A DNA stretch of 64,000 nucleotides from Candidatus Latescibacterota bacterium (GCA_963667175.2 CAXXXF010000006.1:544001-608000); one strand, 5' to 3'; numbered from the stretch's first letter, positions 44,153 through 60,459 are shown. Notes: generated from the sequence alone by a model not told the origin. A program made the numbers and translations.

Positions 44153-45658
44153 TCACGCGCTAACGCCGTACTTTCTCATCCAGTTCGTGAACGTCTGGTA
44201 GCTGGGAAGCCCCACGAGCCGGGCGGCTCGCGATTTGTTTCCTCCTGTCTCTTCCAGCGCCCGCGCAAGGTAGTGCCGCGCGACCGAGGCCAGCAGGGAT
44301 TGGAGGCTAAGGCCATCGCCGAGGGGGCGTTCAAGTATCTTGGCGTCGACCGAACTTACCGCGGGTAGAAGCGCTTCTTTCACGTCTCTAGCATCTATGG
44401 CGGGGCCGGGCGTCCAAAGCGCGGCGCGATGCAGGGTATTCAGCAATTCGCGGACATTACCCGGCCATGGGTGGGCCAGGAGGAAATTTCTTGCGCCTGG
44501 AGAGAGTCTCTTGTGTTCGAAACCCGGCTGATCGGCATTTTCGTCGTTGACCTGCTCGAGCAATCGGTCCACAAGAAGGTTCAGGTCACCCGTTCGATCC
44601 CGGAGAGCAGGCAGCTTCAAATCCGCCACGGCCAGGCGATAGAAGAGATCCTCCCGGAATCTTCCCGTTGCGACCTCTCCCGCCAGGCTCCTATTCGTCG
44701 CGGCGATGATCCTCACGTCGACCTCGCGATGGGCCGTCGCGCCGACGGGCAGAACCATTCCATCTTGCAGGATACGAAGAAACTTTACCTGTGAGGACGG
44801 GGCAAGTTCGCCGACCTCGTCAAGGAACAGGGTTCCCTTGTTGGCTGCCTCGAAATATCCGATCCTGGCTGCGTCCGCACCCGTGAAGGCACCCTTCTCG
44901 TGGCCAAATAGCTCGGATTCCGCCAATTCGGCCGGTATCGCCCCGCAGTTGACCGCCATGAAAGGGTGATCCCGGCGAAGACTCGCCCGATGGATCGCCC
45001 TCGCAAGCAGTTCCTTTCCCGTACCGGACTCGCCCTGTATGAGCACAGGCACAGACCGCGGCGCCACACGTCGGGCTCTCGCAATTACGCGCGCCATGGC
45101 GTCGCTCTGGTAGATGATATCGGCGAATTCCGGCACCTCGGGTGGAAGTCCGGCGGTCGCCTTCTCAAGACGCTCGTCGGGACCCCTGAGGAGGTTGGGG
45201 ATAAACTCGGCCGAGATATCAAACGGGACGGAGACCGTACGAACGCCATGTTTTGCTGACGACTCAATCAGCTCAGCGGGAAAACGCGTTTTTGCAAGGA
45301 GAATCCAGACGGCCGCCATGGCCGGGGTGCCGGGACTCAGGTGAAAGGTCAGGTCAGCATCATCACCGTGATCGCCAAGCGCCGCCGACACGACCCGAAC
45401 CGCGGCCTCGTAGATCTCGGCAAACTCAGTCGGTCCGGATAACGGCTCGCGGCGAACCGTTATCTCGGCCCGAGATCGCGATCGTAGCCACTCAAGAAAC
45501 GTCGCTACCTCGTCCTCAGGATAGTCGCTCAGGAGTACGGCAGCGTCGTACGAATGCGCGTCAAGCGCCTGGGCGACCGGCCCGATGCCCGCGTCCGCCT
45601 CATCACCTGGCGCGCGTAGATCCGCATGGCCGATCCAGCTGATCAGAATATTGTTCAT
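44153..45658 (-). CDS. RtcR-like sigma-54 enhancer-binding protein (CARF - AAA+ - Fis HTH)
   Basis: GESGTGKE, GAFTGA, LFLDEVGEL, FREDLFYRL, WPGNVREL, GNKSRAARLVGL. N-terminal 'ILISWIG..DL..FHLSPGTPAM' CARF-like. Confidence 0.9.
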   Translation of the reverse strand: MNNILISWIGHADLRAPGDEADAGIGPVAQALDAHSYDAAVLLSDYPEDEVATFLEWLRSRSRAEITVRREPLSGPTEFAEIYEAAVRVVSAALGDHGDDADLTFHLSPGTPAMAAVWILLAKTRFPAELIESSAKHGVRTVSVPFDISAEFIPNLLRGPDERLEKATAGLPPEVPEFADIIYQSDAMARVIARARRVAPRSVPVLIQGESGTGKELLARAIHRASLRRDHPFMAVNCGAIPAELAESELFGHEKGAFTGADAARIGYFEAANKGTLFLDEVGELAPSSQVKFLRILQDGMVLPVGATAHREVDVRIIAATNRSLAGEVATGRFREDLFYRLAVADLKLPALRDRTGDLNLLVDRLLEQVNDENADQPGFEHKRLSPGARNFLLAHPWPGNVRELLNTLHRAALWTPGPAIDARDVKEALLPAVSSVDAKILERPLGDGLSLQSLLASVARHYLARALEETGGNKSRAARLVGLPSYQTFTNWMRKYGVSA

Positions 45659-45671
45659 GAATAGTCAATAT

Positions 45672-45705
45672 ACAAGAAATATTGTTATATCATAATATTT
45701 CTTGT
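45672..45705. promoter_or_regulatory. tandem dyad operator immediately upstream of the activator gene
   Basis: ACAAgaaataTTGT-tatatc-ATAAtatttcTTGT, also a perfect 12-bp inverted repeat. Confidence 0.8.
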
Positions 45706-45929
45706 TCTTGTGGAGAAGAGTAATTTTGTTCCAACTTCAAGTAGCGTAGCTCTATCCAATCACATTAGAGCACGCGTTGCAAGCAAGCGCGAGTTGTCGA
45801 GTGGGAGTTTGCGTGGCAGGCGTCACCGCAACTCCAGATAGAACCCATCAGCGTTACAATTCTTAAGTTTTGCAGTCTATTATAATACCGACGTGCCGGG
45901 AACTCCGCTATTCGTGATCGACTTGGATT

Positions 45930-46739
45930 TTATTCTGGTTTCGTCCCGACAGCGCCGAGGACGTGATTGGGTAGATGTTCGATCTTCGTATCTACCTCTC
46001 CAGAAAGGAGATAATCGAGAGGCATATCACCGTGCCCAAACGCCCATAGAAAGAGTTCGGCTCCCAATGCCGAAGGTTGACAAATGATACCGTCGCCAGG
46101 GACAGCGCTTGCTAACTCCTGCAGAGATTTTTTGTCACCAAACTGCCATCGGTTTTCAATGAGATTATCCGAAAAAAGGCCATGCCATATGTGCGTCATA
46201 ATCTGTGGATTACTCCATTCGGCCCGCGTGAATCCCATTGACTCAGTGTAATTTTGGTATGGAAGGTACACCTCCATTTCAGCTCGATTTTCAGATAGAC
46301 CAAACTGCTTTCCCTTATCGGAGAAGAGGTGCGCAACCGTCGCATAAAGGAGATAGTGCGTTCTGACTTGATACGCCGAAAGTTCATCAACAATCTTGAC
46401 TAGCCTGGCACCGCGGTCATCACGGCCAACCTCGGTTCTTGAAGAAGCTAATACCCCACCAAAATACTCCAACGCAACGGGATCATCAGCGTATGAGCCT
46501 TCATTTACAATTCCCTTTAACACCTTTGGTGGTACCCGACCGGGAGATTCGATCCTATCGCCAAGTTTTCCGGCAGCATTTGAAAAGATGTAACGGACAT
46601 TCTCAATTCGGCGCTGTGCAAATGACTTCAGTTCGCCGCCCAAATAATCTGCTGTAGGTCCGAGAAGCTTATTGGTAAGATCCTTCCCCAGATAGGCAGC
46701 AATTACACTTACGCCGACTGTAGTAATTGGTTCCGACAT
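45930..46739 (-). CDS. Abi-alpha/DUF4393-like protein
   Basis: 'VPPKVLKGIVNEGSYADD...EYFGGVLASS...IVDELS' pattern. Lower GC, GGAG RBS. Confidence 0.55.
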   Translation of the reverse strand: MSEPITTVGVSVIAAYLGKDLTNKLLGPTADYLGGELKSFAQRRIENVRYIFSNAAGKLGDRIESPGRVPPKVLKGIVNEGSYADDPVALEYFGGVLASSRTEVGRDDRGARLVKIVDELSAYQVRTHYLLYATVAHLFSDKGKQFGLSENRAEMEVYLPYQNYTESMGFTRAEWSNPQIMTHIWHGLFSDNLIENRWQFGDKKSLQELASAVPGDGIICQPSALGAELFLWAFGHGDMPLDYLLSGEVDTKIEHLPNHVLGAVGTKPE

Positions 46740-46988
46740 GAGCGACTCCAGAATATTCACCGCAATGAAATTCTGCAAAGTACAACGCGGAAGATCGGTA
46801 GTAATCGTTAATTTGCCACGAATCGAGAATGGCGACTACAATCGTCTCGATACGATTTCGAACGTCCACAAAACCCGTCGGCGCAAGGTATTCCCTTTAC
46901 TATATCGATGGAGCGCCTCAAGTTCGCTTCGCGCACACTACTGTCATACGACGCTGTGTCATTGAAACATCCCAAGTTTGCGCGAAGA

Positions 46989-48590
46989 CTAAGGTCCTTT
47001 GTTGGGTTCTTCGTCTTCGACAGTTGCAGCATCGCTGGGCGCCGCTAGATCCCGCGCAAGGCTCTCGCATAGAGCGATGGCAGAGAGACAAAACGACGCT
47101 GCGAACGATGTTGACACGGTGATCCCTTGCCTATGCTGCCCAAAGTCACCAACAGATTGAATGTGGTCTGCGAGCAAATAGGTGGGTTTGGTCACGAAAC
47201 TTGCAACCGGGACGTTGTCCTCCGTGCCCGTGATGAGACGGAGAATGCTACACTGCTGCCCGCGTCGCTGAGGAAGAACGTCGAACTTTACGCCCACGAA
47301 CTTCCATTCTTGAGGAATAGACTCGCTGGATGGTAATTCGGCCTCCCAGATCAGATCCAGCGCATGGTTCGCGATGCTCCGAGCCCAAGTCGTGGATTGG
47401 GTCGGTTCAGGGTGCAGATCACGGATTGCCTTCTTCACGTAACCTAGAAAAATTGGATCCGACCCAGATACCTGATCAACACGGAGTTGGAGGAGGTCTC
47501 GAATGTTGTCATTAAATCGCTTTGCGTCACCAAATAGCCGCTTCAGATTCTCCACTTCGCTCGCTTGCTCTTGCGCATACTGACGCATAAAGCGACACGA
47601 CGATCTAAGCTTTCTCCCTGACGAAACAGCGAAGCCACGCTGCTTAAGGACCCGCATTCTCCCGTCCGGTATTTCGGATTGTGGAACGTCACGATTGGCG
47701 AGTTCTGCCAAGTCGGACCGAATCTCAACGTCGCAACCATCCCATAGAGCGTCCAGTAACCCATGTCTTTCTTCCAAAGTGGTCATTGCAACGTCGTCCA
47801 CGTGCGGTTTCGAAAGCGACGCCTCTTCGGGGGCTTCCAATAGTAGCCGCTCTGCAAGAGCAGCTGATAACGTCGGGACGCCCCCTGTCCAATTGGCGAA
47901 TTCCTTTCTGGCTGAGCCGTCAAGCTCGACGCCTCGCGATTCGAATGGCTTGAGGAAACCATCCCAGTCGTGTTCCTCGAAGCAACCGACATGCAGCGGC
48001 GTGTCGTAGAATATTTCCCAGAAATCCGACGTCCGGGACTCTTCGGTCTTGCAAAGCTCCCGGAGCCTGCTCCGGCTTCCCGTCACAACGCGGAGGCTGC
48101 TCATCTGGCAGAGCGTTCGCAGATTGTCCCATAGGTTTCTCGTTATGCGGCCTTCGGCGAGAAGGCGGTCGAACCCGTCGAGTACGGCTAGAATACGAAC
48201 TCCGCCGGTTTGCATTTCGCTAAAAACGAGATGTAGAAGATCGTGGAGGTCCTCGCCCTCCAAGTCCAAGTAATCTGCGAATTCAGGCTCTACCTTCTGC
48301 AGAACAATTTTGATGTGTTCCGTGAAACGTCGTCGGAACTCATCATCGGTCACCGGTGTGCCATGTCTGAGATCCCAATACAGCGACGTAGAGAAGTGCT
48401 CGCTTGGGCGCGCGAATTGCGTGGCAAGGTGATTCAGGAGGACGGACTTTCCAAACAAGGCAGGGCCGATGACGGACACGTGATCGGGGTTCGACTTGCT
48501 CAAGTGTCGGCATAACTCTTCAAATAGGCGTTCACGGCCGAGCATTGATGGGACATCAACGCCGAGGACTTGATAGGGAATGTCGCTCAT
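46989..48590 (-). CDS. STAND/AAA-like P-loop ATPase with atypical Walker motifs
   Basis: 'LGRE', GPALFGKS, AVLDGFD, TGGVP. ATGA overlap with the upstream gene. Confidence 0.75.
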   Translation of the reverse strand: MSDIPYQVLGVDVPSMLGRERLFEELCRHLSKSNPDHVSVIGPALFGKSVLLNHLATQFARPSEHFSTSLYWDLRHGTPVTDDEFRRRFTEHIKIVLQKVEPEFADYLDLEGEDLHDLLHLVFSEMQTGGVRILAVLDGFDRLLAEGRITRNLWDNLRTLCQMSSLRVVTGSRSRLRELCKTEESRTSDFWEIFYDTPLHVGCFEEHDWDGFLKPFESRGVELDGSARKEFANWTGGVPTLSAALAERLLLEAPEEASLSKPHVDDVAMTTLEERHGLLDALWDGCDVEIRSDLAELANRDVPQSEIPDGRMRVLKQRGFAVSSGRKLRSSCRFMRQYAQEQASEVENLKRLFGDAKRFNDNIRDLLQLRVDQVSGSDPIFLGYVKKAIRDLHPEPTQSTTWARSIANHALDLIWEAELPSSESIPQEWKFVGVKFDVLPQRRGQQCSILRLITGTEDNVPVASFVTKPTYLLADHIQSVGDFGQHRQGITVSTSFAASFCLSAIALCESLARDLAAPSDAATVEDEEPNKGP

Positions 48591-51500
48591 AGCTCATCCT
48601 CCGTCTTCTTGGAGCCGAAGCCCCGTCCAAGTCCAGCGCCGTAGCCATCCCCGTCTGAGAATCCGCCACCGTCGCCCTCGCCACGTCCGTAGCCATCGAC
48701 GATATCCGATTCTCCACGCTCCCGGACCGCCTGCCGGCGCTGATACTCGAAGTCGACGTTGTGTCCTATCCAGTTCGCCATCAAAGGAACCGCAAGCACG
48801 TAAGCAGAGCCTCGTGGCGACTCCCGGAGTTCAAGCAGTTCGAGTTCTCGCAGAAACTCGAGATCATCTCCCAGGCTCTCTTCACGCGGGATGGCAACGC
48901 CGCTCTCCTCGAGCTTCAGCTCAAGCAGGCTCAGCGTGATGGGATCCGGTCCATCCTCGAGTTTTCGACACAGCGCAAGAATAAAGCGCCTGCGCTCTGT
49001 GCGAGCGTAACCCCAGAGCGTGCGAAAGTGTTCGTTGTCCTTCGTCATATCTTCAGCACACGATTCTGCGGCGCCTACGGTCACCGTTCGTTCTTCGGTA
49101 TGGACGGCACGCTCGAATATCCGGTTGCACAGAGACTGGATCAAAAAGGGTTGTTGCGAACACAGGTCTACCACGCGGTCCCGCGCGTCGGGCACGTACG
49201 TGAGCCGCCCCTCCACCGGCCTTGTCACGAGCAGGCGGGCGTCCTCCAGCCGGATTTTGCTCACGGGGATCCGGTGACCGAACCCGAACAGCGCCGACCA
49301 GTATTCTTCCCGCAGTCTCTTGAGACGACGCGAGCCGGTCAGTATGGCTGAGAGATCCGGATACGCGTGCAGCATGTAGCGGATGTTCTCGGGTACCTGC
49401 GGACTTGTGATCCCCGAGTCGATGCCCTCCTGGAGTTTGTCGAACTCATCCAGCATCAGCAGAAGACGCCGCGGGCTGGCAGCCTCAAGAACCGCCTGTA
49501 TGTACAGCTCGAAGGCTTCGAATGGTCGCGGCCCGGCAAACGCGGTTGACAACGCCTTCGTGAACGCCACCTTGAAACGCTTGCTCGTGTCCGGGGGATC
49601 CATTTCCGGCAAACACACCCGGAGGCCCGCGTCGTCCATCGCCCACCCGACGTCGCGCGCCAGGAGTCTGAAGACCTCGTTGGTTTCCAGTCCGCGTTTG
49701 CTCTTGTGGCCCTGGCCGCCCTGGAGGGAGCAGTTCACGACGATCCAGCCCGGAAGCGCGTCGGGATCCTGAAGGTGTTTGAGAATCGACGTCTTTCCCG
49801 TCCGGCGGTTGCCTTCCAGAAGAATGACGTTCGCCCGGTCGCTTGTTGAGAATTGGCGCCGGATCCTATCGATGATATCCTGCCGGCCGTAGAACATCTC
49901 CTTTCGATCAATGGGGCTGCCCACGATGTACGGGCTTGCTCCGATATCGGGGACTTGGACGGCTTCGGAGGTGGAACGCACGTCTACCGCGAGCGGGAGT
50001 TCACCGGACACAGGCCGGCCGTCCATGCGTTCGGCTCGCCATCGGAGCATGAACGGGTAGAGACCGGTTGCGACGTCCGCCGGAATTCGCGCCGTAAAGC
50101 TGAACGGTCCATTCTCGGCAAGATAATCGACACGCCCCTCGCCAATCGACGGAAACGTCGACGCCCGGACGTTTCGCAGTGCAAGCGGCGAATGGTTCAT
50201 TAAACGGACCCGAACCTCGTTTTCCGCCCCCGCTACGACCGCGTCCGGTTCAATGCCCGGCGCCAATGTGACGTCATCCAATATTGCGTCCAACTCGGCC
50301 CGAACCAGCCGGGAGATCCTCCTGGTGAACGTTATCGCATGAGCGAATGTCTGCAGCAGGTTCTTTCTGACTGAAGGATCAGCGGAACTGCCCGAACTCC
50401 CCCACTCTCGTGTCGCATGTGCACCTGCCAAATGGGCATTTCCTATGCCTAAGATAACCGAATGGACTTTCTCAAGACGGTTCCAGGCTCCGTCTAGGAG
50501 CGCCATGCGCCCCGATCCGGGCGGCACGTGGTTCAGACCATGCAGTGACTTCAAGGCTTCCGCGAGATCCTTCAGCCATCTGTTAAATTGACTCACGTCG
50601 ACAATACACGAGCGAACGACCTGTTTTCGGAGCGACGAGGCGGCGTGAGCAATGCGTTCCAGGAGCTTGACCCGGTCCTCGGCCCGTACCGGTCTCCACA
50701 GCCTCCGTAGTTCGGGAGATCCATTCAGCCATGACCCAACCGGGTCTTTGCTGTTTGTGACCAGGATGCGTACGAGCGCGGCAAAGGGATCTTCTCTTTC
50801 GTCACCCATCTGCTTTAATAGTTGTTCCTGTATCGAAACCTGCGGCGCCGGTACGCGAAGGTTTTGTAGCGTTCGAGCAGGGAGATGCCGGATCGTTTCG
50901 CCTCGGGCGTGACCACGGATCCACTGTTGATATGCATCAGACGCAAGGACGCTCTTCAGATAAACCGGGGAGATTGATTTCCCGGGGCGTATCACGGTGA
51001 GACTCCTCGTCGCCACGGCGTCGACAATGCCGCTCTGCTGGGATACGACCGCCAACGTTCCGACGTTGCCGGACGTGGTGATGAGAACGTCGCCCGCGCG
51101 CAACCGGTGCTTTGACCGCACTCGCCTGGTACAGTTCTTCGTCAGGAAGAGAGACGGAGATTGTACTCCGTTGCGATTCACGTCCGCTGCGCGCACAAGG
51201 CCGGCGAATACCGATGGATCGTTCCGTCGCGAGGTGGTACCAGACTTGTCGTACGATACACCTGTAAAGATATCAGCCACCTCGTTGAGTGGGTGTACCG
51301 GGACCCCGGCGTCGCTCCCGAGAACCCGAAGGGAAATTGACAGGATTTTCTCATCGGTTCGCTTTGCAATGAGATCACCGCCCCTGTCGGCGAGTTCTTT
51401 GATGGGGGTCTCCCAGAGGTCCTCAATCGGGTGTTTCTGTTGGAGGTCGTCTGGTTCACCGGTCCGGAATTCCGCCGTGATCGCGCGCGCCGCCTCGACG

Positions 51501-52699
51501 GCCATGTCGCGGCTGAGCTCGTCCTCCGGTCGAACAGACGGCGAATCTTCGATCCGCATGAACCGAACGGCCTCCTTCGCTTTTTCGCGGCGGAAGAGTG
51601 CCAGGCTCATTTTAATCCCCGTGACTGGAAGGAAGGCCCCGTCCGGAAGCGACACCACGCCTTCCACACAGTAATCGGTGAGGAGTTCCTTGCGGACCTT
51701 CTCGTCGGGACCCGTCCGATAGAGAGCGCCATCAGGAAGCGCGACGACGGCGCGACCGCCCGGGCGAAGCGAAGCCATCGCGTGCTGGAGAAACAGCGTC
51801 TCGATGTGCGTTGATGGAACCGGGAAATGGGTTGCGCTCTGCGCCCGCGCGTGTCGGCCCCATGGCGGTACTGCCACGACGCAGTCGAATCCTTCCGAGG
51901 ACCGCTCTCCGGCCGGGGGCCGATCCAGGGCGTCGCCGAGTTCGAGACCGGGTTGATCCATGCCCGCCAGGACGACGCGCGCAAGCCCGATGACGTGCGC
52001 GTACGGACTGATTTCCACCCCGTACACGCTTTGTTGAAGCGACTCGGGCATCCGCGTTGCGTTTTCGAGAAGTCGGCCGGCCACCGTGGCGAGCAGCCCA
52101 CCGGCCCCGAAGCACGGATCGTAGACGCGCTCTCCCGGACGAGGATCCAGAAGTTCAGCCATCAGCTCAACCACGCGTTTGGGCGTGGTGTGGTCTCCCG
52201 GGATCTCGCCCGTTTCAGCGGCGTTTGCCACAAGGGCCCCAAGCGCGTTCCCTGCCGAATGCCTGCCGGTATCGGATTCCAAATCGAAAGGCCTGCCCCA
52301 CTCCAGAAGTGTCTCGATCACCTCAGGAGATTCCCGGACCAGGTTTTCCACGATGGGCGCAAGCAGCTTCAAGTACTTACCGGGACCTCGATCGGGCGCG
52401 TTACGCAACGCAGGCAGAACCCCCCCGCCAAGCGCGTCCACGAGTTCGCCGCCGCGAAGATCGCGCCAGGAAGACCAATGCAGACCGCGAGGTAGGGCAG
52501 ACGGACAGTCGTGACTCTTGAGAGCGTCCGCGGGTTCCTGTTCGGCATCCTTGCGCTCGGCCCAACGCAGCAGAAACAGGGCGGCCGCAAAGGACGCGAT
52601 GGCCGACTCGGGCTGACGGTCGCCAGCCTCCTGCCCGGCGATCTCATCGAGGCGGGTCCGGAGTTCGGACACGCGAGATGTGAGTTCAGATTGATTCAT
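48587..52699 (-). CDS. fusion: HsdM-like N6-MTase fold + HsdS-like TRD + Ig-like + STAND/AAA ATPase (1370 aa)
   Basis: HTTPKRVVELM, YDPCFGAGG, YGVEI, VPPW, LFLQH. TRD 'GDVLITTSGNVG..P...IQE'. ATPase 'FYGR..EGNRRTGKTS..LMLDEFD'. ATGA overlap at 52696-52699. Confidence 0.85.
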   Translation of the reverse strand: MNQSELTSRVSELRTRLDEIAGQEAGDRQPESAIASFAAALFLLRWAERKDAEQEPADALKSHDCPSALPRGLHWSSWRDLRGGELVDALGGGVLPALRNAPDRGPGKYLKLLAPIVENLVRESPEVIETLLEWGRPFDLESDTGRHSAGNALGALVANAAETGEIPGDHTTPKRVVELMAELLDPRPGERVYDPCFGAGGLLATVAGRLLENATRMPESLQQSVYGVEISPYAHVIGLARVVLAGMDQPGLELGDALDRPPAGERSSEGFDCVVAVPPWGRHARAQSATHFPVPSTHIETLFLQHAMASLRPGGRAVVALPDGALYRTGPDEKVRKELLTDYCVEGVVSLPDGAFLPVTGIKMSLALFRREKAKEAVRFMRIEDSPSVRPEDELSRDMAVEAARAITAEFRTGEPDDLQQKHPIEDLWETPIKELADRGGDLIAKRTDEKILSISLRVLGSDAGVPVHPLNEVADIFTGVSYDKSGTTSRRNDPSVFAGLVRAADVNRNGVQSPSLFLTKNCTRRVRSKHRLRAGDVLITTSGNVGTLAVVSQQSGIVDAVATRSLTVIRPGKSISPVYLKSVLASDAYQQWIRGHARGETIRHLPARTLQNLRVPAPQVSIQEQLLKQMGDEREDPFAALVRILVTNSKDPVGSWLNGSPELRRLWRPVRAEDRVKLLERIAHAASSLRKQVVRSCIVDVSQFNRWLKDLAEALKSLHGLNHVPPGSGRMALLDGAWNRLEKVHSVILGIGNAHLAGAHATREWGSSGSSADPSVRKNLLQTFAHAITFTRRISRLVRAELDAILDDVTLAPGIEPDAVVAGAENEVRVRLMNHSPLALRNVRASTFPSIGEGRVDYLAENGPFSFTARIPADVATGLYPFMLRWRAERMDGRPVSGELPLAVDVRSTSEAVQVPDIGASPYIVGSPIDRKEMFYGRQDIIDRIRRQFSTSDRANVILLEGNRRTGKTSILKHLQDPDALPGWIVVNCSLQGGQGHKSKRGLETNEVFRLLARDVGWAMDDAGLRVCLPEMDPPDTSKRFKVAFTKALSTAFAGPRPFEAFELYIQAVLEAASPRRLLLMLDEFDKLQEGIDSGITSPQVPENIRYMLHAYPDLSAILTGSRRLKRLREEYWSALFGFGHRIPVSKIRLEDARLLVTRPVEGRLTYVPDARDRVVDLCSQQPFLIQSLCNRIFERAVHTEERTVTVGAAESCAEDMTKDNEHFRTLWGYARTERRRFILALCRKLEDGPDPITLSLLELKLEESGVAIPREESLGDDLEFLRELELLELRESPRGSAYVLAVPLMANWIGHNVDFEYQRRQAVRERGESDIVDGYGRGEGDGGGFSDGDGYGAGLGRGFGSKKTEDEL

Positions 52700-54300
52700 C
52701 TGTCGACGCCCTCCCTTGCGGTCATTCGGACAACGATCGAGGCCGCGCCAGCTTCCTCGGCAACCCGGCGGGCGACCTGGATCTCTTCCGGAGATCGGAC
52801 CGCCACCACGAGCTTCCCGTCCGGTTCCTTGAATACGGGAGGCTCGTACGGGGCTGGCTTCGTCTTCTTGCCGGCCGCTGTCCGCGAGGCTGCCTTCGCC
52901 CTGGAATCTCTTGCACCGGTCCGCTCGGGCATCTCCGGCCCGCCGCCAGCAGTCCGCATGATTTCCTTCGCCTTCGGGTGCAGATCCGGTGCTCGAACGA
53001 GCCTTCGGCACTCAAGCTCGTGAGCGGGTTGCGGCAGTCCATTGATACGCGGGAGATCCGGGGCTGGCGCTTTCAGTACGTGCGCGGACGCGGCAGTTAC
53101 GGATCCAAGATCTACCGTGAGCCGGGGCTTGACCTCGAGGTCGATCAGATTTCCTCCGTGCCAGACGCGCACGTCTCCGGCCACCTCTCCCAACGCAGGC
53201 GCCGGAAGGAGTTCCCACGCCGCCTGACTCGACCATCGTTCGAGGCGGATCCGAAGCTCGTCCGCCCGCTCGCCTTCAAGCCGCAAGCCCAATTCGAAGC
53301 CGCCGTCGAGCCCATGCTTCTCCAGATTCGCCGACATGACCAGTCCCCTGCCCGAGTCGGACCACAACGCCTTGGCGTGCAGCCACTTGAAGCCGAGCAC
53401 CCGGGCGCCCGCCTCCGCGAGCGCGGCGAGGGCGGGCATGGCGCGGAGACGGGTGCGCGCCAGCACCGTGAGCGAAACGCCCTCGCGGGCACGCGCACAG
53501 AGACGCTCGACCACCGGATGGCCGGCGTCCCATCCGTAGCTCGAAACGATGAGTTCCCCGGAGGCGCCGTCGATGAGATCGACGGCCTCCTCACGCAGTT
53601 GAGTGACTGAAGACGTGGTTGCCAGGACATGCGGGGACGGCGCCGGATGATCGACGCGGCCGAGGGGCTTCACCGCCCGAAAATTTCCAAGTTCCACCAT
53701 TTCGTGCTCTGCGCCTTCCCATATTGCCCATCGAACGAGCTCTGCAGCTTCTTTCACTTCCTTCGGGGTCAGCTCGACGGCCAACTCCTCGTTCCGCTCC
53801 AGCGCTTCGCGAGTGAGGTTCGCCGTCAGCAATAGCCCCGCAGGGCGCTCGTCGGGGTCGACCAGTACCAGCTTGGCGTGGAAGTGCGGCGCCGAACGGA
53901 TGAGCGCCCAACCGCCAAGGCGACTCAGCACGTCGTTGTGTTCCGCGAGCACACGCCGTTCAAACTCCCCGTCCCCGGGTTCGTCACCAAGACGGGCTTC
54001 CGAGGCGAGCATGACGTACACCCGCACGCCCCTCCCGGCGGCTTCGAGGATCGCGGCTTCGACGTCCCGGTCGGCCAGCAGGAAGCTGGAGACGACGACT
54101 TTCTTTCTTGCGGAGGCCAGGAGTTTGGCGATTCGATCCTTCAGCTCCCCGCCCTTTCCCGATATATGGACTTCCCTGCCCGTTTCCGGCTGGCGGATTG
54201 TCTCCCTCTGGCGGGAACTCCACGTGGGTGGCAGTCGATAGTTGCGCTGGTTAATAATAGATGTGACCTGCTTTGTCCAGTTCTTCATGGTGATCTCCAT
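52696..54300 (-). CDS. phospholipase D-family nuclease with two HKD motifs
   Basis: HAKLVLVD..TANL..NEEL and HAKALWSD..SANL..FEL. TAATG overlap at 54300. Confidence 0.85.
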   Translation of the reverse strand: MEITMKNWTKQVTSIINQRNYRLPPTWSSRQRETIRQPETGREVHISGKGGELKDRIAKLLASARKKVVVSSFLLADRDVEAAILEAAGRGVRVYVMLASEARLGDEPGDGEFERRVLAEHNDVLSRLGGWALIRSAPHFHAKLVLVDPDERPAGLLLTANLTREALERNEELAVELTPKEVKEAAELVRWAIWEGAEHEMVELGNFRAVKPLGRVDHPAPSPHVLATTSSVTQLREEAVDLIDGASGELIVSSYGWDAGHPVVERLCARAREGVSLTVLARTRLRAMPALAALAEAGARVLGFKWLHAKALWSDSGRGLVMSANLEKHGLDGGFELGLRLEGERADELRIRLERWSSQAAWELLPAPALGEVAGDVRVWHGGNLIDLEVKPRLTVDLGSVTAASAHVLKAPAPDLPRINGLPQPAHELECRRLVRAPDLHPKAKEIMRTAGGGPEMPERTGARDSRAKAASRTAAGKKTKPAPYEPPVFKEPDGKLVVAVRSPEEIQVARRVAEEAGAASIVVRMTAREGVDR

Positions 54301-55412
54301 TACAGTCTCCAATCTTCGGCGGCGGCGAGACGCCAGAACAAAGGATCGGGACGTTCTGGCGTCCCGTTGCAGACCTCGTCGAAAAGTTCCGTTCGAGTTG
54401 GGAGTTCTATCTCGTACTGTTCGAAGGGGTCAGCCGCCTCACCGCGCCATGCTGAATAGCGCTCAGAGGTCGCATAGTCCCGGATCCGTGCGCGCAGGCG
54501 CCACTTCGCCCACGACTGTGCCTCGGCCTCAGACGGGGCGGTGATCGGTACGTCCGGAACGTTAAGCGGCTCGAACTTTCCGTAGAAGCCCAGGTACGGT
54601 GACTCGAATTCCAGGACGCGGGACATGGCCTCCCGCTCGGGGTCGTTGGTGTCGTCGAAGCTCACGCACAGCACCTGCCGTTTTTCGTCCCACTGCTCCA
54701 ATAGACCCCCGTTTTCGAGCAACGTGCGCCATACCCGGTCGGGCGACGTGGATGGCGCCTCCAGTTCGGTCGCGACCTTCTTCCCTTCCAGGATTCCGGT
54801 GAGCTGCAATCGCCCGTCGCCGAAGTTCCAGCGGAGACGAAGGAATCCATTGGCGTCAACTGCCTCGGCTTTGTCCTCAAGGTCATCAACGCGAATCACG
54901 GCGCCGCGTCCGGCGGCCGGCTTGATGGGCGTCCCCTCGACGTTTCGTATCCAAGTCGGTAGTGCGTCGTGTCGGCGCTCTTCCGTGCGCTGCCGCTTGT
55001 TGCGGAGCTCGTCGTGCGCGGTGGGCTCCTTCCACGGTTCGATTCGCAAGATGGGCGACGGCAGCAGAGGGTCGACACTCGCCCAGATCGTCCAGGTTCC
55101 GCACTCGGGAACGAGCACCTTTTCAGTGTCGATGGCCGTCTCCCCGGCTTCGGTGAGTTCGAAAGCGCGACCGCGCTTCTCGAGAAGCTTGTAGGCGACT
55201 CCAATATCCAGGAGCCGCTCAGCGACGACGCGCCGCGACCGGGACTCGAAGAGCAGATGCTCGGCCACGTCGCGCGCGCCCGTTCCGCCGTTCTCGCGAA
55301 TCCGCAGGAGGACGGGCATGAGTTCGGGCCGTTTCTCAGCTTTGGCGACCTGCCCGACGACGCGCCAGCACCTGACTTCCACGGGTCGTTCCAGAATGAT
55401 GTTCCTGTTCAT
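54300..55412 (-). CDS. hypothetical protein with N-terminal winged helix
   Basis: 'ARDVAEHL..VAERLL...LLEK...FELTEAGE'. ATGA overlap with the helicase stop. Confidence 0.75.
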   Translation of the reverse strand: MNRNIILERPVEVRCWRVVGQVAKAEKRPELMPVLLRIRENGGTGARDVAEHLLFESRSRRVVAERLLDIGVAYKLLEKRGRAFELTEAGETAIDTEKVLVPECGTWTIWASVDPLLPSPILRIEPWKEPTAHDELRNKRQRTEERRHDALPTWIRNVEGTPIKPAAGRGAVIRVDDLEDKAEAVDANGFLRLRWNFGDGRLQLTGILEGKKVATELEAPSTSPDRVWRTLLENGGLLEQWDEKRQVLCVSFDDTNDPEREAMSRVLEFESPYLGFYGKFEPLNVPDVPITAPSEAEAQSWAKWRLRARIRDYATSERYSAWRGEAADPFEQYEIELPTRTELFDEVCNGTPERPDPLFWRLAAAEDWRL

Positions 55413-58045
55413 TGTTGCCTCCGGTTGATGTCCTTCCCCCACCGTTTGCTCTCAGCCAATGCCTTCAGCAAGGTACCCCTTGCCCGACGCATCGCCTGCC
55501 GGTCGCCAATGACGACGCGCTGATAGCGCGCTCTGGTCAGGGCGACGTTCAGGCGGTTCGGGCTCTCCAGGAAGCTCGTCGGGTGGGGCCGGGCGAAACT
55601 GATCAGCACGACGTCGGCCTCGTGCCCCTGGAAGCGGTCAACGGTGCACAGCTCGATGCGGAGGTAGGGCCGTTCCTTCTGACCCCGTGTAAAGTGGCGC
55701 ATTGCGTGGCGCTGCCCGGTCCATTTATGGAGATAGCCCCGCACCTTCCGTTCCTGTCCCCGGTAGAAGGTCAGGACGGCCGCCTCCCAGGTACGGTCGT
55801 CATTCAGCGGGTTCGCACGCGCCCACGCATCGAAGTGGCGGAGTTCTTTTACAACCGATCGAGCCTCCCTTTGGTTGCAGTTGAGGCGCCGGTCGAAGGC
55901 GCCACGAACGTCGCGCCAGACGGCATGGTAGGCGTAGCGGGGGTAGCTCCACGCGCGTTCGTCCTTCATCGATTCCGGGGTTTGGAGCGCCTTGCCGCCG
56001 TAGACGTGTTTATGGGATAACGCCGCAATCTCGGGATGCATGCGGTGCTGCGTGCTCAGGAGCACGTGACGCGGATCGAGCACGAAATCCGGCAGACCGT
56101 CCGACAGCGCGCTTCCGGTGCGCTGGTTCCCGTTGCGCTCGAACCCACGATGAAGCGATTCGAGAACGGACGGAAGGGCGACGCGGCGTACGCGATCGAT
56201 CTCCAGCCAGACCTCTTCCGGATCTGCGCCGGTCTCAGCGTTGGGGAGTAACTCTTTCACTTCCTGACGCAGGCGTTCCGCGGTGGTGGTCCGGTTGTCA
56301 CTCGAATCGTCCGAATCCTCTGCGAAACGCTGCTCGTACAACCTCGCGAGGCGCCAACCGACTTCGGACGCCCACTCCGGCGCCTCTTCGCCGTCTTGTC
56401 CGGCAAGGCGAAGCCACGCATCCGCGCGACGATGCGCGACGTGCAGAGTGTTCTCCGGCCCGCGCACCATCGCGAGGTCAAGCGGCAGTTCGTCCACCCT
56501 CCGCTCCAGCGCGGTAGCTGTACCGATAGCGACGTCCGCGGTCGAGAGCCCGTGGTCATCGAGGTCCGCGTCGGCAAGCGTTACGTCCCGAGCGGCGCAC
56601 TGCTCGCGGTACCCCTGGCGGGTACGTTCGTCCTCTGCGACGACGGCGGCGGTGCGCCGTTTATGGCGGCTGGGACGCCCCGCGTTGAAGGCGTCAATGC
56701 AGGCGTCCCGGATCCCGGGGTCGCGAAGACACGTCTCAATGTTCACCGCCATCGCCTCGTCATCGACGTACGGGGAGAGTTGCTTCGGGTCGCCGACGAT
56801 GATCCAGCGCTTCGCCAGCAACGCGGGGACCAGGAATTCCTGGAATGGCGTCTTGGAGGCTTCGTCGACGATGAGCACGTCGAAGGTGGTGCTGGCGTGG
56901 CCGCCCGACTTGCCCCGGTGCTGTTTAATGTCCGGATGCTGGAGGATCCCGATTGTGGTCCCGCACACGAGGTTGGCGGCGTCCAGAACCATGCGCTCGA
57001 TAACCGAGGGGCCCGGGCGCAAGGCTTCAAGAAAGGCTTCCTGCGACGGCGTGAGAGACCTTCGCCCCTGAAGCTCCCGGAGCAGGCGCTCCCTCTCGGT
57101 TCGAACGAAACGGTCGAACTGCCATGGGCGCGCCTTCTCGGAGACGTTCCGCCGGTCGCCGATGCGGACCGGGATCACCAGGTCGCGGTGTGGGTTGGAC
57201 TCGTCCATCAGGCGCTCCAGCACGTTGTCGACCGCGACATGCGTCGACGCCGAGAGAAGCACCCGCTTCCCGCGCTTCGCAAGCTGGAGCACCAGTTCGC
57301 CGATCGCCGTCGTCTTTCCCGAACCGGGCGGCCCTTCGAGAAACGCGAAATCCGGCGTTCCGAGGGCCTGCTCAACGAATTCGCGTTGCTCGCCGGTTCC
57401 GGGACGACTCTGGTCCGTCAGCACCATCCAGTCCGGGTCATCAATGCACTCCGCATCGACAATCGGCCATAAAGCGCTGTCGCGATCTTCGAAGAGCCGC
57501 AGCAAAGGGCGGTGAAAGGACGAAGGGGTGTTCTGAAGCGCCTGTAGAGCATCGATCTGGCACTTGATTTGCCACGTGTTGGGCCGGAGCAGGAGCTCGG
57601 TCAGGTCCGGAACTCGCTCGAGCAACAGTTGGTTGGTATTGGGGTCCCGGTCGATTACCGCAATCTTGTGCTGCGGACCGAAGCCCAGTCGGTCGTTACG
57701 ACGGGCATCCGGCCCTTCGGTTTCGGCGGAGGGCTCGGCCTCGTAGACCTCCTTCACGTTTTCGTCCAGGAAGGTCCGAAATGTGGCCTCCGGCTCATCG
57801 CGACGGCCCGGCGGCTCGGTCAGCTCGATCCAAGTTCCATCGGTCTCTGCCCGCCCGGCGCCGTTGCCGCCGTTGGCCGGCGGTTCGCCGGGGCGCCACG
57901 CGAGCCGTTTCACGGCAGCGTCGCTGTTCAGGTATTCCCGAGTCCGCCTCAGGAATTCGTAGAATATCCGGAGCCCATAGAAGGTGTTCTTCATCAGGAC
58001 GTCCGGGCGGTGAACCCCGAGGTTCCAGTAGTGCAGTAGCGCCAT
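55409..58045 (-). CDS. SF1B UPF1/DNA2/NAM7-like helicase (AAA_11/AAA_12)
   Basis: GPPGSGKTT, STHVAVDN, VDEASK, GDPKQLSP, QHRMHP, TFYRGQ, TVDRFQGHE, NRLNVALTRAR. Confidence 0.92.
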   Translation of the reverse strand: MALLHYWNLGVHRPDVLMKNTFYGLRIFYEFLRRTREYLNSDAAVKRLAWRPGEPPANGGNGAGRAETDGTWIELTEPPGRRDEPEATFRTFLDENVKEVYEAEPSAETEGPDARRNDRLGFGPQHKIAVIDRDPNTNQLLLERVPDLTELLLRPNTWQIKCQIDALQALQNTPSSFHRPLLRLFEDRDSALWPIVDAECIDDPDWMVLTDQSRPGTGEQREFVEQALGTPDFAFLEGPPGSGKTTAIGELVLQLAKRGKRVLLSASTHVAVDNVLERLMDESNPHRDLVIPVRIGDRRNVSEKARPWQFDRFVRTERERLLRELQGRRSLTPSQEAFLEALRPGPSVIERMVLDAANLVCGTTIGILQHPDIKQHRGKSGGHASTTFDVLIVDEASKTPFQEFLVPALLAKRWIIVGDPKQLSPYVDDEAMAVNIETCLRDPGIRDACIDAFNAGRPSRHKRRTAAVVAEDERTRQGYREQCAARDVTLADADLDDHGLSTADVAIGTATALERRVDELPLDLAMVRGPENTLHVAHRRADAWLRLAGQDGEEAPEWASEVGWRLARLYEQRFAEDSDDSSDNRTTTAERLRQEVKELLPNAETGADPEEVWLEIDRVRRVALPSVLESLHRGFERNGNQRTGSALSDGLPDFVLDPRHVLLSTQHRMHPEIAALSHKHVYGGKALQTPESMKDERAWSYPRYAYHAVWRDVRGAFDRRLNCNQREARSVVKELRHFDAWARANPLNDDRTWEAAVLTFYRGQERKVRGYLHKWTGQRHAMRHFTRGQKERPYLRIELCTVDRFQGHEADVVLISFARPHPTSFLESPNRLNVALTRARYQRVVIGDRQAMRRARGTLLKALAESKRWGKDINRRQQ

Positions 58046-58092
58046 CTTCTTCTTACGTCCTTTCCTTTGCTATTGAGATTATGAGACGTCAA

Positions 58093-58419
58093 TCAGCCCA
58101 TCGGCCGCCGGTTACGCCGACGACCTTGCGGGCGCAGCCCTCGGAAGTCTCGATTCCGGTACGTGGTCAGGACGTCTCCTTCTGAACTGCATACGACGTG
58201 AATTCCCTCGAAGTCAGCCAATTCGATGCCTTTACGCAGGAACCTCGTGACTTCCTTGCGGCCGATGACGTAGATTTTCGCGCCGCGCACGTAGACCACA
58301 CGACCATATTTTATCACCGTCGAAAGGGCAGTTTCGGAAATCCTCCGGGCCATCATCCGCATACGGGCATGGGTCGTGATGACATGGCTCCGGCGCTTGT
58401 CTGCACAATCGTAGCTCAT
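58093..58419 (-). CDS. DUF4258-like small basic protein
   Basis: 'TTHARMRMMARRI...VIKYG...VVCS..G.VLTTYRN'. AAAGGAG RBS. Confidence 0.75.
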   Translation of the reverse strand: MSYDCADKRRSHVITTHARMRMMARRISETALSTVIKYGRVVYVRGAKIYVIGRKEVTRFLRKGIELADFEGIHVVCSSEGDVLTTYRNRDFRGLRPQGRRRNRRPMG

Positions 58420-58472
58420 CAGTTCGCTCCTTTCGTCGGCGGTCAATTCCGCTTGACTCCGGATCTGATCAG

Positions 58473-58487
58473 GCCACTTCCGTGCCA
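58473..58487 (-). promoter_or_regulatory. secondary sigma-54 promoter candidate
   Basis: TGGCAC-GGAAG-TGGC, GG-N10-GC spacing kept. Confidence 0.55.
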
Positions 58488-58583
58488 ACGTGACTCGATC
58501 CGTTCCCGGCAAGCTCAATCTTCATTCCTGCTGATTGCTCCATCCAAATTGCATATAACTTTATGGTGGCATTTGGGGGAAGC

Positions 58584-58598
58584 GCAAACCGCGTGCCA
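58584..58598 (-). promoter_or_regulatory. sigma-54 (-24/-12) promoter
   Basis: TGGCAC-GCGGT-TTGC, exact match to TGGCAC-N5-TTGC, pointing into the operon. Confidence 0.85.
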
Positions 58599-58823
58599 AT
58601 TTTCGCTGAACCCCGTCCTTCCCGGCCAGTCTTCATGTTCCCATGGCTCGATACCACGATCAAGCGATCATGGGGAAATTCTATAATACGTTGTCTTTAA
58701 TCAATTTAAGCAATAATCTCCCAGGTCCTCCTTTCAATGTCGAAGACCGGATCGGCGGGGCGGACACAAGGATCCGACCGGACGATCCACCTGATCGATG
58801 TCCTTGTCAAGGACCACAAGTAT

Positions 58824-58857
58824 ACAATATATTTTGTGTAATTATAAGAATTATTGT
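58824..58857. promoter_or_regulatory. tandem dyad operator / putative enhancer (UAS)
   Basis: ACAAtatattTTGT-gtaatt-ATAAgaattaTTGT, same architecture as 45672..45705. Confidence 0.75.
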
Positions 58858-59185
58858 GGTTCGCGGAGTAATGGAGGAATTCCGGGTCGGAAGGGATTTT
58901 GCACACATTGCTGCCCGGATTTTGGTCTCGCTCTATCTGACCGAAAGCCGCCAGTGTATTGAATGTGGCGAGGCTCTCCCCCGCTTTTTCGCGCTCGACA
59001 AATATGACATCCTCATGAAGAAAAGGTTTCGGTAAACGTCCGGCGCGCGCCGAAAATCTCCGATATCTCCATCCACAAGAGATTGAACAACCTTGCGGTC
59101 TGGTTCCGCCAATCTGACGCAACTGCAAACCGATTCCCGTACGCTGACCGTCGGTTGACAGGATGGAATGACTGCGGTTTCTGAG

Positions 59186-59231
59186 GAAGGAAGAAGGAAA
59201 AAGGGAAAACGAAAAAGGAGGAAGGAAGAAG
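59186..59231 (+). repeat. purine-rich heptamer array
   Basis: GAAGGAA/AAACGAA-type 7-mers. Similar array at 62671..62725. Confidence 0.7.
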
Positions 59232-59255
59232 TGGGGTTGGTAAACACACACTGCC

Positions 59256-59317
59256 GGGCGGTTCGGGAACCGCCCCTACAAGAAAAGGCCCCGCCAGGGC
59301 GACCACAAGGGTCGCCC
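59256..59317. repeat. pair of GTAG-type REP palindromes
   Basis: GGGCGGTTC-GG-GAACCGCCCCTAC and GGGCGACC-ACAAG-GGTCGCCC. Confidence 0.75.
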
Positions 59318-59329
59318 GTTCAGACAGAT

Positions 59330-59515
59330 CGGCGGCAACGTCGAAATCAACTCTTCACAATATGCGTCCGCCCCGCCACATTGCTGCAGCCATTCGCTGG
59401 CATTCACCCTCTCCCTGATAATCTCCGTCAATTTGGCAGTAGAAGGTGCGCCAAATTCGAAAGATGCGCCGGCGCCGACAATTACGATCGCGCGATTTCC
59501 AATCTTCTTTTTCAT
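59330..59515 (-). pseudogene. truncated SIR2-like protein N-terminus
   Basis: 'AIVIVGAGASFEFGAPSTAKLTEII', the SIR2_2 GAGxS motif, broken at the REP cluster. Confidence 0.65.
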
Positions 59516-59608
59516 AGCGCAAGGGAACACCAGTCTATTTATCTGTCCGAAGTGTATAAGATCAAGTTTCTGTTTATAAAATTCTCAGATTACATGCCAT
59601 TGGTACAT

Positions 59609-60454
59609 CTACGTGACAAGATCAAACGGCAAGTCTGCAATATCTCGGAGACGATTGCCGATAATCATCGTATCCAAAGAATCCTGGACGGCTTCGTTTC
59701 GACTCTCTTTGGTGACCTTCACAAGTTCATTAAGGCAGAAGTGGTAGACACAATCGATATCGCCGGTTCCCAATGCGAGAGACGCGATTCGGGTTGGCAT
59801 TGGTTCGGCCGTCACCACGGCGATATGGGGGGTGTGCCCTTTACGGTTACGTATCAGGTTCAAGCCTTCCGTTCGGGCATTCTGCGACCGATCACTTCGA
59901 AGAGTCAATTTGCACGAAATGCTCGCGTGCAGTATTGGAGACGCTTCTTCCTGATTTGTCCGACGTAGCGGCGTCAAGTACGGGATGCCACCCTCGTGTA
60001 CGATTACCCAATGCTTGTTTATCGCCTCGTCTGCAACAGGTGTGCGCGCAACGATGACCTCGGGCTTGACGACATAATCACCAAGGGCCGTCTGAGCCAC
60101 CTTATTGGCTTGGATCAGTTCATTCAGGGTAGCCAAATGTCGGTATTGCACGAATTCCGATATATCGCCGTGCACAGAATAAATCCAATCCGCTGGACGA
60201 AGATGTTCGAGGACTTTCATGGTTGATTTAATGAATTCCCGTACTGCCGCTTCAAACTTGCTCCCGGCGGTTTGACCGCTTATTCTGGTGCTCCCAAGCG
60301 AATAGCCAAATTCCTCAATGATCCCGCGCGCCAACGAACAACTGAGATTGCTGCTGGTGTCGGCAATGCTCGGGGTTCGATCTCTTTTCAAGAATATCGC
60401 TCCAGAACAGACTTGCCGTTGAAATTGCTCGCGCAGTTTTGCGATTTCAGCCAT
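59609..60454 (-). CDS. NgoMIV-family type II restriction endonuclease
   Basis: GQTAGSKFE, LHASISCKLTLRSDRSQNARTEGLNLIRNRKG.TPHI..VTAEP.P.RIASLALGTGDIDCVYH. Confidence 0.9.
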   Translation of the reverse strand: MAEIAKLREQFQRQVCSGAIFLKRDRTPSIADTSSNLSCSLARGIIEEFGYSLGSTRISGQTAGSKFEAAVREFIKSTMKVLEHLRPADWIYSVHGDISEFVQYRHLATLNELIQANKVAQTALGDYVVKPEVIVARTPVADEAINKHWVIVHEGGIPYLTPLRRTNQEEASPILHASISCKLTLRSDRSQNARTEGLNLIRNRKGHTPHIAVVTAEPMPTRIASLALGTGDIDCVYHFCLNELVKVTKESRNEAVQDSLDTMIIGNRLRDIADLPFDLVT

Positions 60455-60459
60455 CAGAT

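Follow-up and report, generated by a model that had tools for sequence, protein, structure and literature searches.

A putative sigma-54-dependent defence operon in a Candidatus Latescibacterota bacterium, probably composed of two separately conserved modules

Whether genes that are joined in one operon also work as one machine is the question raised by a locus in a stretch of 64,000 nucleotides (nt) from a Candidatus Latescibacterota bacterium (GCA_963667175.2 CAXXXF010000006.1:544001-608000; this whole stretch is hereafter called the window, and positions are counted from its first letter). On its minus strand, eight co-oriented genes, designated A to H (44153-58518), are located behind a sigma-54 box. 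The initial annotation regarded the first six genes as encoding a single multi-subunit anti-phage machine. Our results point in another direction: the locus is probably a composite, horizontally acquired, sigma-54-dependent operon of the defence type, made of two separately conserved modules, each of which occurs elsewhere with an RtcR-like activator of its own.

The operon genes all lie on the minus strand. Gene A (58093-58419), which is the first, encodes a DUF4258 protein of 108 amino acids (aa) that matched Pfam PF14076 above the cut-off (2e-7), and is followed after 47 nt by gene B (55409-58045), encoding a UPF1-like superfamily 1 (SF1) helicase of 878 aa matched by AAA_11, AAA_12 and the PADLOC model MkoA. 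The product of gene C (54300-55412), a protein of 370 aa from no named family, has an N-terminal winged helix and then beta-rich domains, and gene D (52696-54300) encodes a PLD-family nuclease of 534 aa (PLDc_2) with two HKD motifs (H141 and H308). Gene E (48587-52699) encodes a 1370-aa fusion of an HsdM-like part, a target recognition domain (TRD) and a STAND/ORC-type ATPase, and gene F (46989-48590) a STAND/ORC-type ATPase of 533 aa with a helical C-terminal domain. Gene H (44153-45658), which is separated from F by gene G, encodes a sigma-54 activator of the RtcR_PspF2 type that consists of a CARF domain, an AAA+ domain with the GAFTGA motif and a helix-turn-helix (HTH). The description of six co-oriented genes, five of which are translationally coupled, was borne out by four start/stop overlaps linking B through F, which could be read directly in the sequence (ATGA at B/C, TAATG at C/D, ATGA at D/E and ATGA at E/F). 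The domain calls that had been made from the sequence generally held in Pfam, PADLOC and NCBIfam scans, and the remark that no named system combining these parts is known agrees with our finding that no model in these three collections spans the whole of it.

The six genes were not found together in the loci that we compared. Searches with all eight window proteins yielded 48 loci carrying E and F (one genome per species), none of which contained A, B, C, D or G, and none of the 24 metagenome loci carrying C had E-F beside B-C-D, the only methyltransferase (MTase) matches among these, in L061 and L080, being generic. A six-gene order conserved across genomes, as anticipated in the initial annotation, was not seen in any of the 72 readable loci, and each half was strongly conserved alone; the single six-subunit machine fared no better, since E-F and B-C-D each recur without the other. 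Elsewhere, the first module consists of a sigma-54 promoter, B, C, D and an RtcR_PspF1 activator gene, i.e. a Mokosh-like cassette, which is headed here by the DUF4258 gene A. The second reads RtcR_PspF2 activator, sigma-54 promoter, hsdR-hsdM-hsdS and E-F, or the same without the hsd genes.

Regarding the first module, the ATG of gene A is preceded by AAGGAG at a distance of 7 nt, and the longest open reading frame (ORF) starts at TTG 58518; the ATG start was favoured because the homologues of A (n = 69) are mostly 104-108 aa in length. The DUF4258 domain was detected at 3.6e-7 in a domain scan, and its family has been called BrnT/RelE-like in one paper. The B protein gave matches to AAA_11 (6e-32), AAA_12 (7e-30) and MkoA (1e-82, profile positions 532-1081 of 1112) and retains intact helicase motifs (GPPGSGKT, DEAS, QHRM, VDRFQG and TRAR), and the D protein matched PLDc_2 (9e-19) and, in PADLOC, DrmC (1e-20) and MkoB (8e-13), with HxKx4D at residues 141 and 308. 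No match was obtained for the C protein in Pfam, PADLOC or NCBIfam, a profile search against solved structures returned nothing at E <= 0.1, and its structural model, which had a predicted local distance difference test score (pLDDT) of 87.7, had no structural match at E <= 0.001. The only proteins that resembled this model were of the MarR winged-helix type and covered ~70 residues, the rest beyond the winged helix being unmatched; the winged HTH proposed for C stands for this part of the model, not as a family assignment.

The C family comprised 162 proteins and gave the 24 metagenome loci, in all of which the order B-C-D was kept as far as the contigs extended, B being present in 22 loci and D likewise in 22. 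The 20 loci that have B as well as D all carry C between the two, as the window does. An H-like activator gene was found downstream of D in 13 loci, out of 16 whose sequence extends 1 kb or more beyond D, and the four of these 13 activators that were scanned all scored best as RtcR_PspF1 (1e-140 to 2e-158), a sub-family that differs from that of H. Among 167 other genomes of the phylum, C was present in four, one of which (G164, from the same class) reads box, B, C, D and PspF1 activator. Seven A homologues and C homologues match in the size of their longest contig, which points to shared contigs, and A belongs with B-C-D at least sometimes.

Other genes were also observed around this cassette. 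In L070 (8149-15238), a second sigma-54 box is followed by DUF4258, a DrmD-like SNF2 helicase (3e-119) and a TmtA-like gene (8e-72), and in L071 (3755-7126) a DruH-like protein (4e-162) is encoded after B-C-D, so that both loci have other defence genes instead of the activator. The genome from which the window was taken also carries a distant helicase and C-like pair (34% and 23% identity; G000:C6 at ~180.4-190.0 kb, locus L094, 4397-13998, minus strand), which is followed by genes for a 761-aa protein without assignment, a PP2C phosphatase and a Ser/Thr kinase, and a similar pair is present in G009. These pairs suggest that the helicase and C form a core that combines with different partners.

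Concerning the second module, the E family numbered at least 1114 proteins at E <= 0.001 when 8000 candidates were examined, and was distributed over Gemmatimonadota, Actinomycetota, Planctomycetota, Acidobacteriota and others. F was matched in 47 of the 48 E loci: in 46 it follows E directly, and in L056 it precedes E; the F of L031 is a stub of 44 residues only, and the contig of L034 ends 83 nt past E. H was matched in 27 of these loci and lay upstream on the same strand in 26. HsdR, HsdM and HsdS clusters, as obtained by ORF clustering and scans of representatives, were placed between H and E in 14, 16 and 18 loci, respectively, and the full HsdR-HsdM-HsdS set was counted in nine. The commonest architecture was H-box-HsdR-HsdM-HsdS-E-F, the minimal form being H-box-E-F, and the only full-length E among 60 relatives (G054) was found in the order H-box-HsdM-E-F. 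Both modules look horizontally acquired because their distribution is patchy, with C in four of 167 phylum genomes and full-length E in one of 60 relatives.

Several E-F loci had particular arrangements. L050 (4128-15209) carries a tandem duplication, in which an E of 1278 aa and a truncated F are followed by an E of 1326 aa and an F of 538 aa, and a single activator with a single box precedes both pairs. Transposase genes were noted within or next to E-F operons: L038 (7981-9699) has a DDE_Tnp_1 gene between H and E, and L037 (15118-16965) has a YhgA-like gene after F. L036 (17868-20033) encodes a 721-aa protein downstream of E-F that has an RNA polymerase alpha C-terminal domain (5e-18) and a sigma-70 region 4 motif, which is an unusual fusion. 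In L014 (8489-9472), a protein of a PADLOC candidate system (PDC-M09A, 8e-30), and not hsdRMS, is encoded between the activator and E, so that a cassette of a third type occupies this socket.

Sigma-54 control, although predicted, is the best-supported part of the first reading of this locus. The -24/-12 box TGGCACGCGGTTTGCG (58583-58598, minus strand) had been termed an exact promoter; TGGCAC-N5-TTGC is exact, but the final W is missed, and the box alone does not exceed chance, because the window contained three box matches against 1.43 expected and 20 of 100 shuffles reached three. It is credible because the same box recurs at the equivalent position in related loci and is not a single match. 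We scanned the loci for TGGCAC-N5-TTGC with at most one mismatch and with GG and GC intact, and found the box within 80 nt upstream of the first gene, be it HsdR, E or another, in 23 of the 48 E-F loci, with three more nearby, and in 19 of the 26 that have H upstream, in which it often begins within a few bases of the H stop codon. In total, only 51 such boxes were present in the 1.98 Mb that were scanned, both strands counted. Before B, the box was located at 42-85 nt in 13 of the 17 B-C-D loci having upstream sequence, or in 11 of 15 distinct loci, since three of the box-bearing loci are near-identical. The genome encodes rpoN, the sigma-54 gene, so that the spacing of the -24 GG and -12 GC, the sigma factor and a cognate activator are all in place for a dependence that is itself predicted. 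An imperfect inverted repeat without strand assignment (58749-58788; 16-nt arms, 81% complementary, 8 nt apart), situated 150-190 nt upstream of the box, is a candidate activator-binding site.

The H protein matched PADLOC RtcR_PspF2 (PDLC01995) at 7.5e-198 over residues 3-499, together with Sigma54_activat (2.4e-68) and HTH_8 (1.5e-6), and has GAFTGA at residue 256; it shows the complete architecture of an RtcR-type activator, namely CARF, a GAFTGA-bearing AAA+ domain and a C-terminal HTH. The names RtcR_PspF1 and RtcR_PspF2 are said to come from a work of Makarova et al. in 2020. Against the NCBIfam model of RtcR (NF038308), H scored 334 bits, the equivalog cut-off being 650, which places it below RtcR proper, and RtcA and RtcB were absent among the proteins annotated in and beside the locus, no wider genome search having been made. 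H is 60-74% identical to most of the activators upstream of E-F elsewhere and 43-52% in three loci. Considering the matching positions of the box in both sets of loci, the wiring of a sigma-54 promoter to a CARF activator, as first proposed, found strong support.

Behind the promoter, we detected a decayed 5' relic of a type I hsdR gene (58473-58544, minus strand), which has ATC at its start codon and an in-frame TGA. Its translation reads ISRNED*ACRERIE, and the HsdR proteins of the H-hsdRMS-E-F loci begin MSRNEDRTCRELIE; 11 of the 14 HsdR N-termini from RtcR-hsdRMS-E-F loci matched this segment, the best with 13 of 24 residues identical and an E-value of 9.6e-5 in a search space of 1.3 kb. 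The decayed start codon region lies 48 nt past the sigma-54 box, and a DNA alignment revealed the conserved pattern ATGAGCCG.AACGA..TGCCG.GA..ATCGAGCC, with the same distance to the box as in L012, L015 and L018. The relic indicates that the DUF4258-helicase-C-PLD genes replaced the hsdRMS genes of a module-2 operon, of which the promoter and E-F were kept. The statement that there is no HsdR is correct for the genes of the operon, but the start of such a gene persists behind the promoter and a full HsdR precedes E-F in 14 related loci.

The E protein gave matches to N6_Mtase (5e-40), AAA_16 and models of type I specificity subunits (between 1e-11 and 1e-14), and is laid out as an HsdM-like domain, one TRD (~460-640), an unmatched middle, an ATPase (GNRRTGKT and DEFD) and a C-terminal domain. 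Its first 630 residues correspond to the solved HsdM 5ybb_A (2.8e-66, profile positions 6-482) and to Esub1/HsdS (467-628); no solved relative of the remaining 740 residues was found by profile search, and an atlas search with residues 641-925 gave no usable match. Motif I of the methylase (DPCFGxGG) is intact, and motif IV reads VPPW in the window. At the Asn position of motif IV, 43 E proteins have V (18), A (20), H (2), S (2) or N (1), whereas the true HsdM proteins encoded in the same loci have NPPY without exception (12 of 12). The pseudo-MTase of the initial annotation was thereby confirmed as to the missing catalytic Asn, which 42 of the 43 family members lack, and the methylase head of E is, judging from these residues, predicted to be catalytically dead.

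In an alignment, the ATPase and C-terminal parts of E were the most conserved, with mean identities to the window E of 76% and 69%, respectively. Among nine more distant loci (36 pairs), the TRD varied more than any other part of E, with a median pairwise identity of 32.8% (a rough figure, since the TRD was cut by offset), compared with 50.4% in the MTase core and 56.9% at the C-terminus; HsdS gave 30.1% and HsdM 68.5%. The possibility that the TRD of E copies the neighbouring HsdS was considered and rejected, because the same-locus median was 32.7 bits versus 29.6 across loci and own-locus ranks ranged from 0 to 14 of 16. The variability of the TRD argues somewhat for the reading of DNA, and we keep both the reading of DNA and that of a DNA mimic.

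The F protein has the motifs GPALFGKS and LDGFD and an invariant His486 in GDFGQH, which is located within the helical C-terminal domain. AAA_16 reached exactly its cut-off of 32.6 bits in E, and F remained below it at 28.8, as did the STAND models of F with respect to theirs; a profile search of F against solved structures returned nothing at E <= 0.1. In the structural model of F (pLDDT 86.5), the first ~330 residues matched the archaeal ATPases PAB2304 (4.5e-8) and SSO1545, as well as ORC2/Cdc6, Avs3 and CED-4. The STAND/ORC core, which consists of a P-loop, a helical and a winged-helix part, is recognisable by these matches, and Walker A and B motifs are present in both E and F. When residues 926-1370 of E were co-folded with F, the median score was 0.63 and the best of three controls reached 0.00; 58 of 80 solved complexes and two of 110 mismatched pairs attained the mark adopted for such scores. 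At least 64% of the contacts were common to the runs, the partner pLDDT was at least 80, and the interface joins ATPase to ATPase. The models support the view that E binds F. A conserved effector gene after F was also sought and rejected, the nine downstream proteins from eight loci being heterogeneous: a ResIII helicase, a HATPase, a prolyl oligopeptidase, an NmrA-like protein, a transposase and others without a family.

Several observations weigh against the composite, two-module reading or parts of it. The hsdR relic is short and its E-value comes from a tiny search space, so that its weight lies in its position and in 11 concordant matches. H is located at the 3' end of the operon here, whereas its closest relatives (60-74% identical) stand at the 5' end of E-F operons; the 3' end is where B-C-D loci carry their PspF1 gene, and neither a protein search nor DNA likeness to the 3' end of H disclosed a relic of H upstream of the box. 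The co-fold score of E and F may stem from a resemblance to AAA+ hetero-oligomers of solved structure (ORC and RFC, for instance), no effector or nuclease domain was recognised in E or F, and the structure match extends to the ATPase and winged-helix part of F only. An annotation pipeline might call the locus Mokosh type I because MkoA and MkoB match B and D. The defence role is one that we infer from context and homology, as is any action against phages; the ligand, targets and E-F effector are likewise putative. The translational coupling of D and E, together with the probable recurrence of the composite, would also be expected of functionally integrated halves: three E and three C homologues, which are 53-81% identical to the window proteins, share the longest-contig sizes 390258, 26377 and 11915, and so presumably the same contigs, and the composite probably recurs.

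These last points bear on the proposal that six genes encode one machine, in which E, together with F, does the sensing and has the helicase and PLD nuclease as its dedicated executioners. Besides the four overlaps that tie B through F and the probable recurrence of the composite, this proposal can draw on the usual position of E-F elsewhere behind HsdR, a motor and nuclease for which B and D could substitute. It is quite unlikely, considering that none of the 48 E-F loci has B, C or D and none of the 24 B-C-D loci has E-F, that several loci, for example L017, L020, L022, L030 and L032, read H-E-F without a nuclease module, and that B-C-D elsewhere has its own activator type, PspF1; sensing by the MTase/TRD-ATPase on behalf of the helicase and PLD nuclease is possible in this particular operon. 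Another explanation takes E-F, within the composite, as a decoy or guard, the dead HsdM-TRD head of which mimics the type I methylase core that is the target of anti-restriction DNA mimics of phages (Ocr and ArdA), so that binding of such a protein trips the STAND ATPases, with a logic like that of Ronin and an architecture like that of Avs. The loss of the catalytic Asn in 42 of 43 proteins, while the fold and motif I are kept, would be expected of a decoy, as would the position of E-F directly behind guardable type I restriction-modification (RM) genes in 16-18 of the 48 loci (the full set in nine) and an ATPase fold that is STAND/ORC-like and matches Avs3 and CED-4; according to the available text on Ronin, its HsdMS core senses Ocr and ArdA independently of methylation (10.1101/2023.04.06.535777). 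The TRD is, however, the fastest-evolving part (32.8% versus 50.4% in the core and 56.9% in the C-terminus), which resembles a shifting DNA specificity more than a fixed bait, it is no closer to the HsdS of its own locus (32.7 versus 29.6 bits), and no effector was recognised in E-F; we consider the decoy an improbable account.

The operon may also have nothing to do with defence and may respond to RNA or DNA damage under a stress regulator of the RtcR type, as rtcBA does. RtcR proper controls RNA repair, as far as is stated in the accessible parts of PMC7790460 and PMC9650030, and UPF1-like helicases are described as acting in RNA surveillance in the available text of 10.1101/2022.05.11.491447. 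Yet H falls below the RtcR cut-off (334 versus 650 bits), rtcBA does not lie next to the operon whereas restriction systems do, the helicase and PLD nuclease match Mokosh and DISARM models, and the distribution among relatives is patchy; moreover, Mokosh, which has the same two enzyme types, protects Escherichia coli from phages according to the same partial source (10.1101/2022.05.11.491447). A pure damage response is thus highly improbable, and a defence operon composed of two modules remains our preferred reading.

A comparison with known systems places the first module close to Mokosh type I (MkoA and MkoB), which, as described in the available text (Millman et al., 10.1101/2022.05.11.491447), likewise combines a UPF1-like COG1112 helicase with a separate PLD nuclease, the active sites of both being needed for phage defence in E. 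coli. Unlike the Mokosh type I described there, B has no Ser/Thr kinase among its 15 Pfam matches (E <= 0.01), and MkoA was matched from position 532 only. Mokosh type I is a two-gene system, whereas here a conserved third gene, C, stands between helicase and nuclease, D gives better scores with DrmC models than with MkoB, and B-C-D comes with a sigma-54 promoter and an activator of the CARF type. The occurrence of RtcR-like activators next to restriction systems, and their predicted action through sigma-54, were published as early as 2014 (Makarova et al., PMC4012209), and Bell et al. (eLife 2024, PMC11090510) reported defence superoperons that are headed by RtcR and include type I RM, UPF1-like helicases and BrnT-like genes; in the accessible parts of both papers, sensing of cyclic-phosphate RNA ends is proposed for RtcR-like proteins. 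The type II/III-A CoCoNuT superoperons, so far as the latter text describes them, also join an RtcR-like CARF activator to co-directional defence genes headed by a small BrnT-like gene (PMC11090510). They differ in that the McrB-like GTPase CnuB and the McrC-like CnuC, which adjoin a CnuH helicase in CoCoNuTs, had no counterpart among the family matches of the eight operon proteins, that the activator is at the 3' end here, and that a terminal E-F unit is not mentioned in the available text of PMC11090510 and PMC4012209.

With regard to the second module, the first 630 residues of E resemble the methylase core of type I RM systems (HsdM2-HsdS; 5ybb), with motif I kept, but the Asn of motif IV is replaced in 42 of 43 proteins, a single TRD is fused in cis in place of a two-TRD HsdS, 740 further residues with a STAND-type ATPase follow, and there is no HsdR other than the relic. 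Ronin (Silas et al., 10.1101/2023.04.06.535777) is likewise an HsdM/HsdS-derived, methylation-independent module linked to RM or BREX; as presented in the part of that source available, it has a separate, competent-looking HsdM/HsdS and a 61-aa membrane toxin, whereas E-F are fused ATPases with no recognised toxin, and the likeness would be one of logic only. H shares with the RtcR/rtcBA switch a CARF domain, a GAFTGA-bearing AAA+ domain, an HTH and a -24/-12 promoter, but belongs to the PspF2 sub-family, and the genes under its presumed control encode nucleases, helicases and ATPases, not RtcA and RtcB. Membership of the MADS system (mad1-mad8), to which E (mad2 and mad5) and B and F (mad8) gave weak matches, was rejected because the scores were far below the cut-offs (76 versus 720 bits for MAD2) and weaker than generic type I matches, and the OLD-type MAD3/MAD4 were absent, a module that the accessible text of PMC13662399 describes for MADS. 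In the literature searched, which left most subscription journals and supplementary tables outside, neither the E-F pair nor the helicase-C-PLD-activator cassette was found to have been described. The contribution of the window is that it joins the two modules in a single operon and retains an hsdR relic that documents the exchange.

Gene G (45930-46778, minus strand), which encodes a protein of 282 aa, is separated from F by ~210 nt and from H by ~270 nt, and the GC content is 0.478 at 46000-46999. The designation of its product as Abi-alpha-like rests on a language-model atlas, in which the three listed best of 30 matches were clusters with Abi_alpha in 17-41% of their members (scores 0.95-0.97) and the ten best family-bearing matches all belonged to one family or clan, but it gained nothing from Pfam, where G had no match; the protein is possibly Abi_alpha-like. 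In view of the lower GC content, of the gaps on either side and of its absence from all 48 E-F and all 24 B-C-D loci, we consider G a passenger gene that stands apart from the others.

Immediately before the operon, on the same strand, genes for an NgoMIV-family endonuclease (PF09015, 1.2e-93) and an N4/N6 methylase of 478 aa are located at 59609-61896. This pair and the operon make up a defence island of ~18 kb amid ordinary genes (HAD hydrolase, M24 peptidase and PhyH). The ~1 kb between them (58600-59608) contains no convincing gene and has a lower GC content (0.51-0.53), with a long polypyrimidine run on the minus strand at ~59190-59240; an ORF of 181 aa (58706-59251) had no family match. 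No tRNA gene was present in the 64-kb window, and there was no integrase among the flanking genes scanned, which look ordinary.

Under the two-module reading, the operon would be switched on when the CARF domain of H binds a ligand that arises from infection or RNA damage, which by analogy with RtcR may be RNA ends with a 2',3'-cyclic phosphate. H would then spend ATP to open the sigma-54 promoter, whereupon the whole operon would be made. A, if it is an RNase like the products of BrnT-type genes, may amplify the signal by cutting RNA, and B-C-D may attack the nucleic acid of the invader in a Mokosh-like manner. E-F would constitute a hetero-oligomeric ATP switch, the dead methylase/TRD head of which reads DNA, or a DNA-mimicking anti-restriction protein, without methylating.

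In a wider sense, it is conceivable, and we suggest it tentatively, that an RtcR-type activator with its sigma-54 promoter is a general infection-inducible socket for interchangeable cassettes, either hsdRMS or DUF4258-helicase-C-PLD, that E-F is a new STAND sensor with a dead methylase/TRD receptor which licenses or backs up the cassette in front of it, and that the window is a snapshot of a cassette exchange. With similar reserve, the head of E-F might in this case read unmodified target DNA or the anti-restriction DNA mimics of phages.

To our knowledge, few defence systems are known to be transcriptionally switched on by an infection signal. The two modules are widespread, with more than 1,000 E-family and 162 C-family proteins found across many phyla, and each has a conserved sigma-54 promoter and a CARF activator, which makes ligand-induced, enhancer-dependent immunity testable. 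The hsdR relic represents rare direct evidence of effector-cassette swapping behind a fixed regulatory socket and, if the present reading is true, the fusion of a dead methylase with a STAND ATPase would give such sensors a receptor of a new type.

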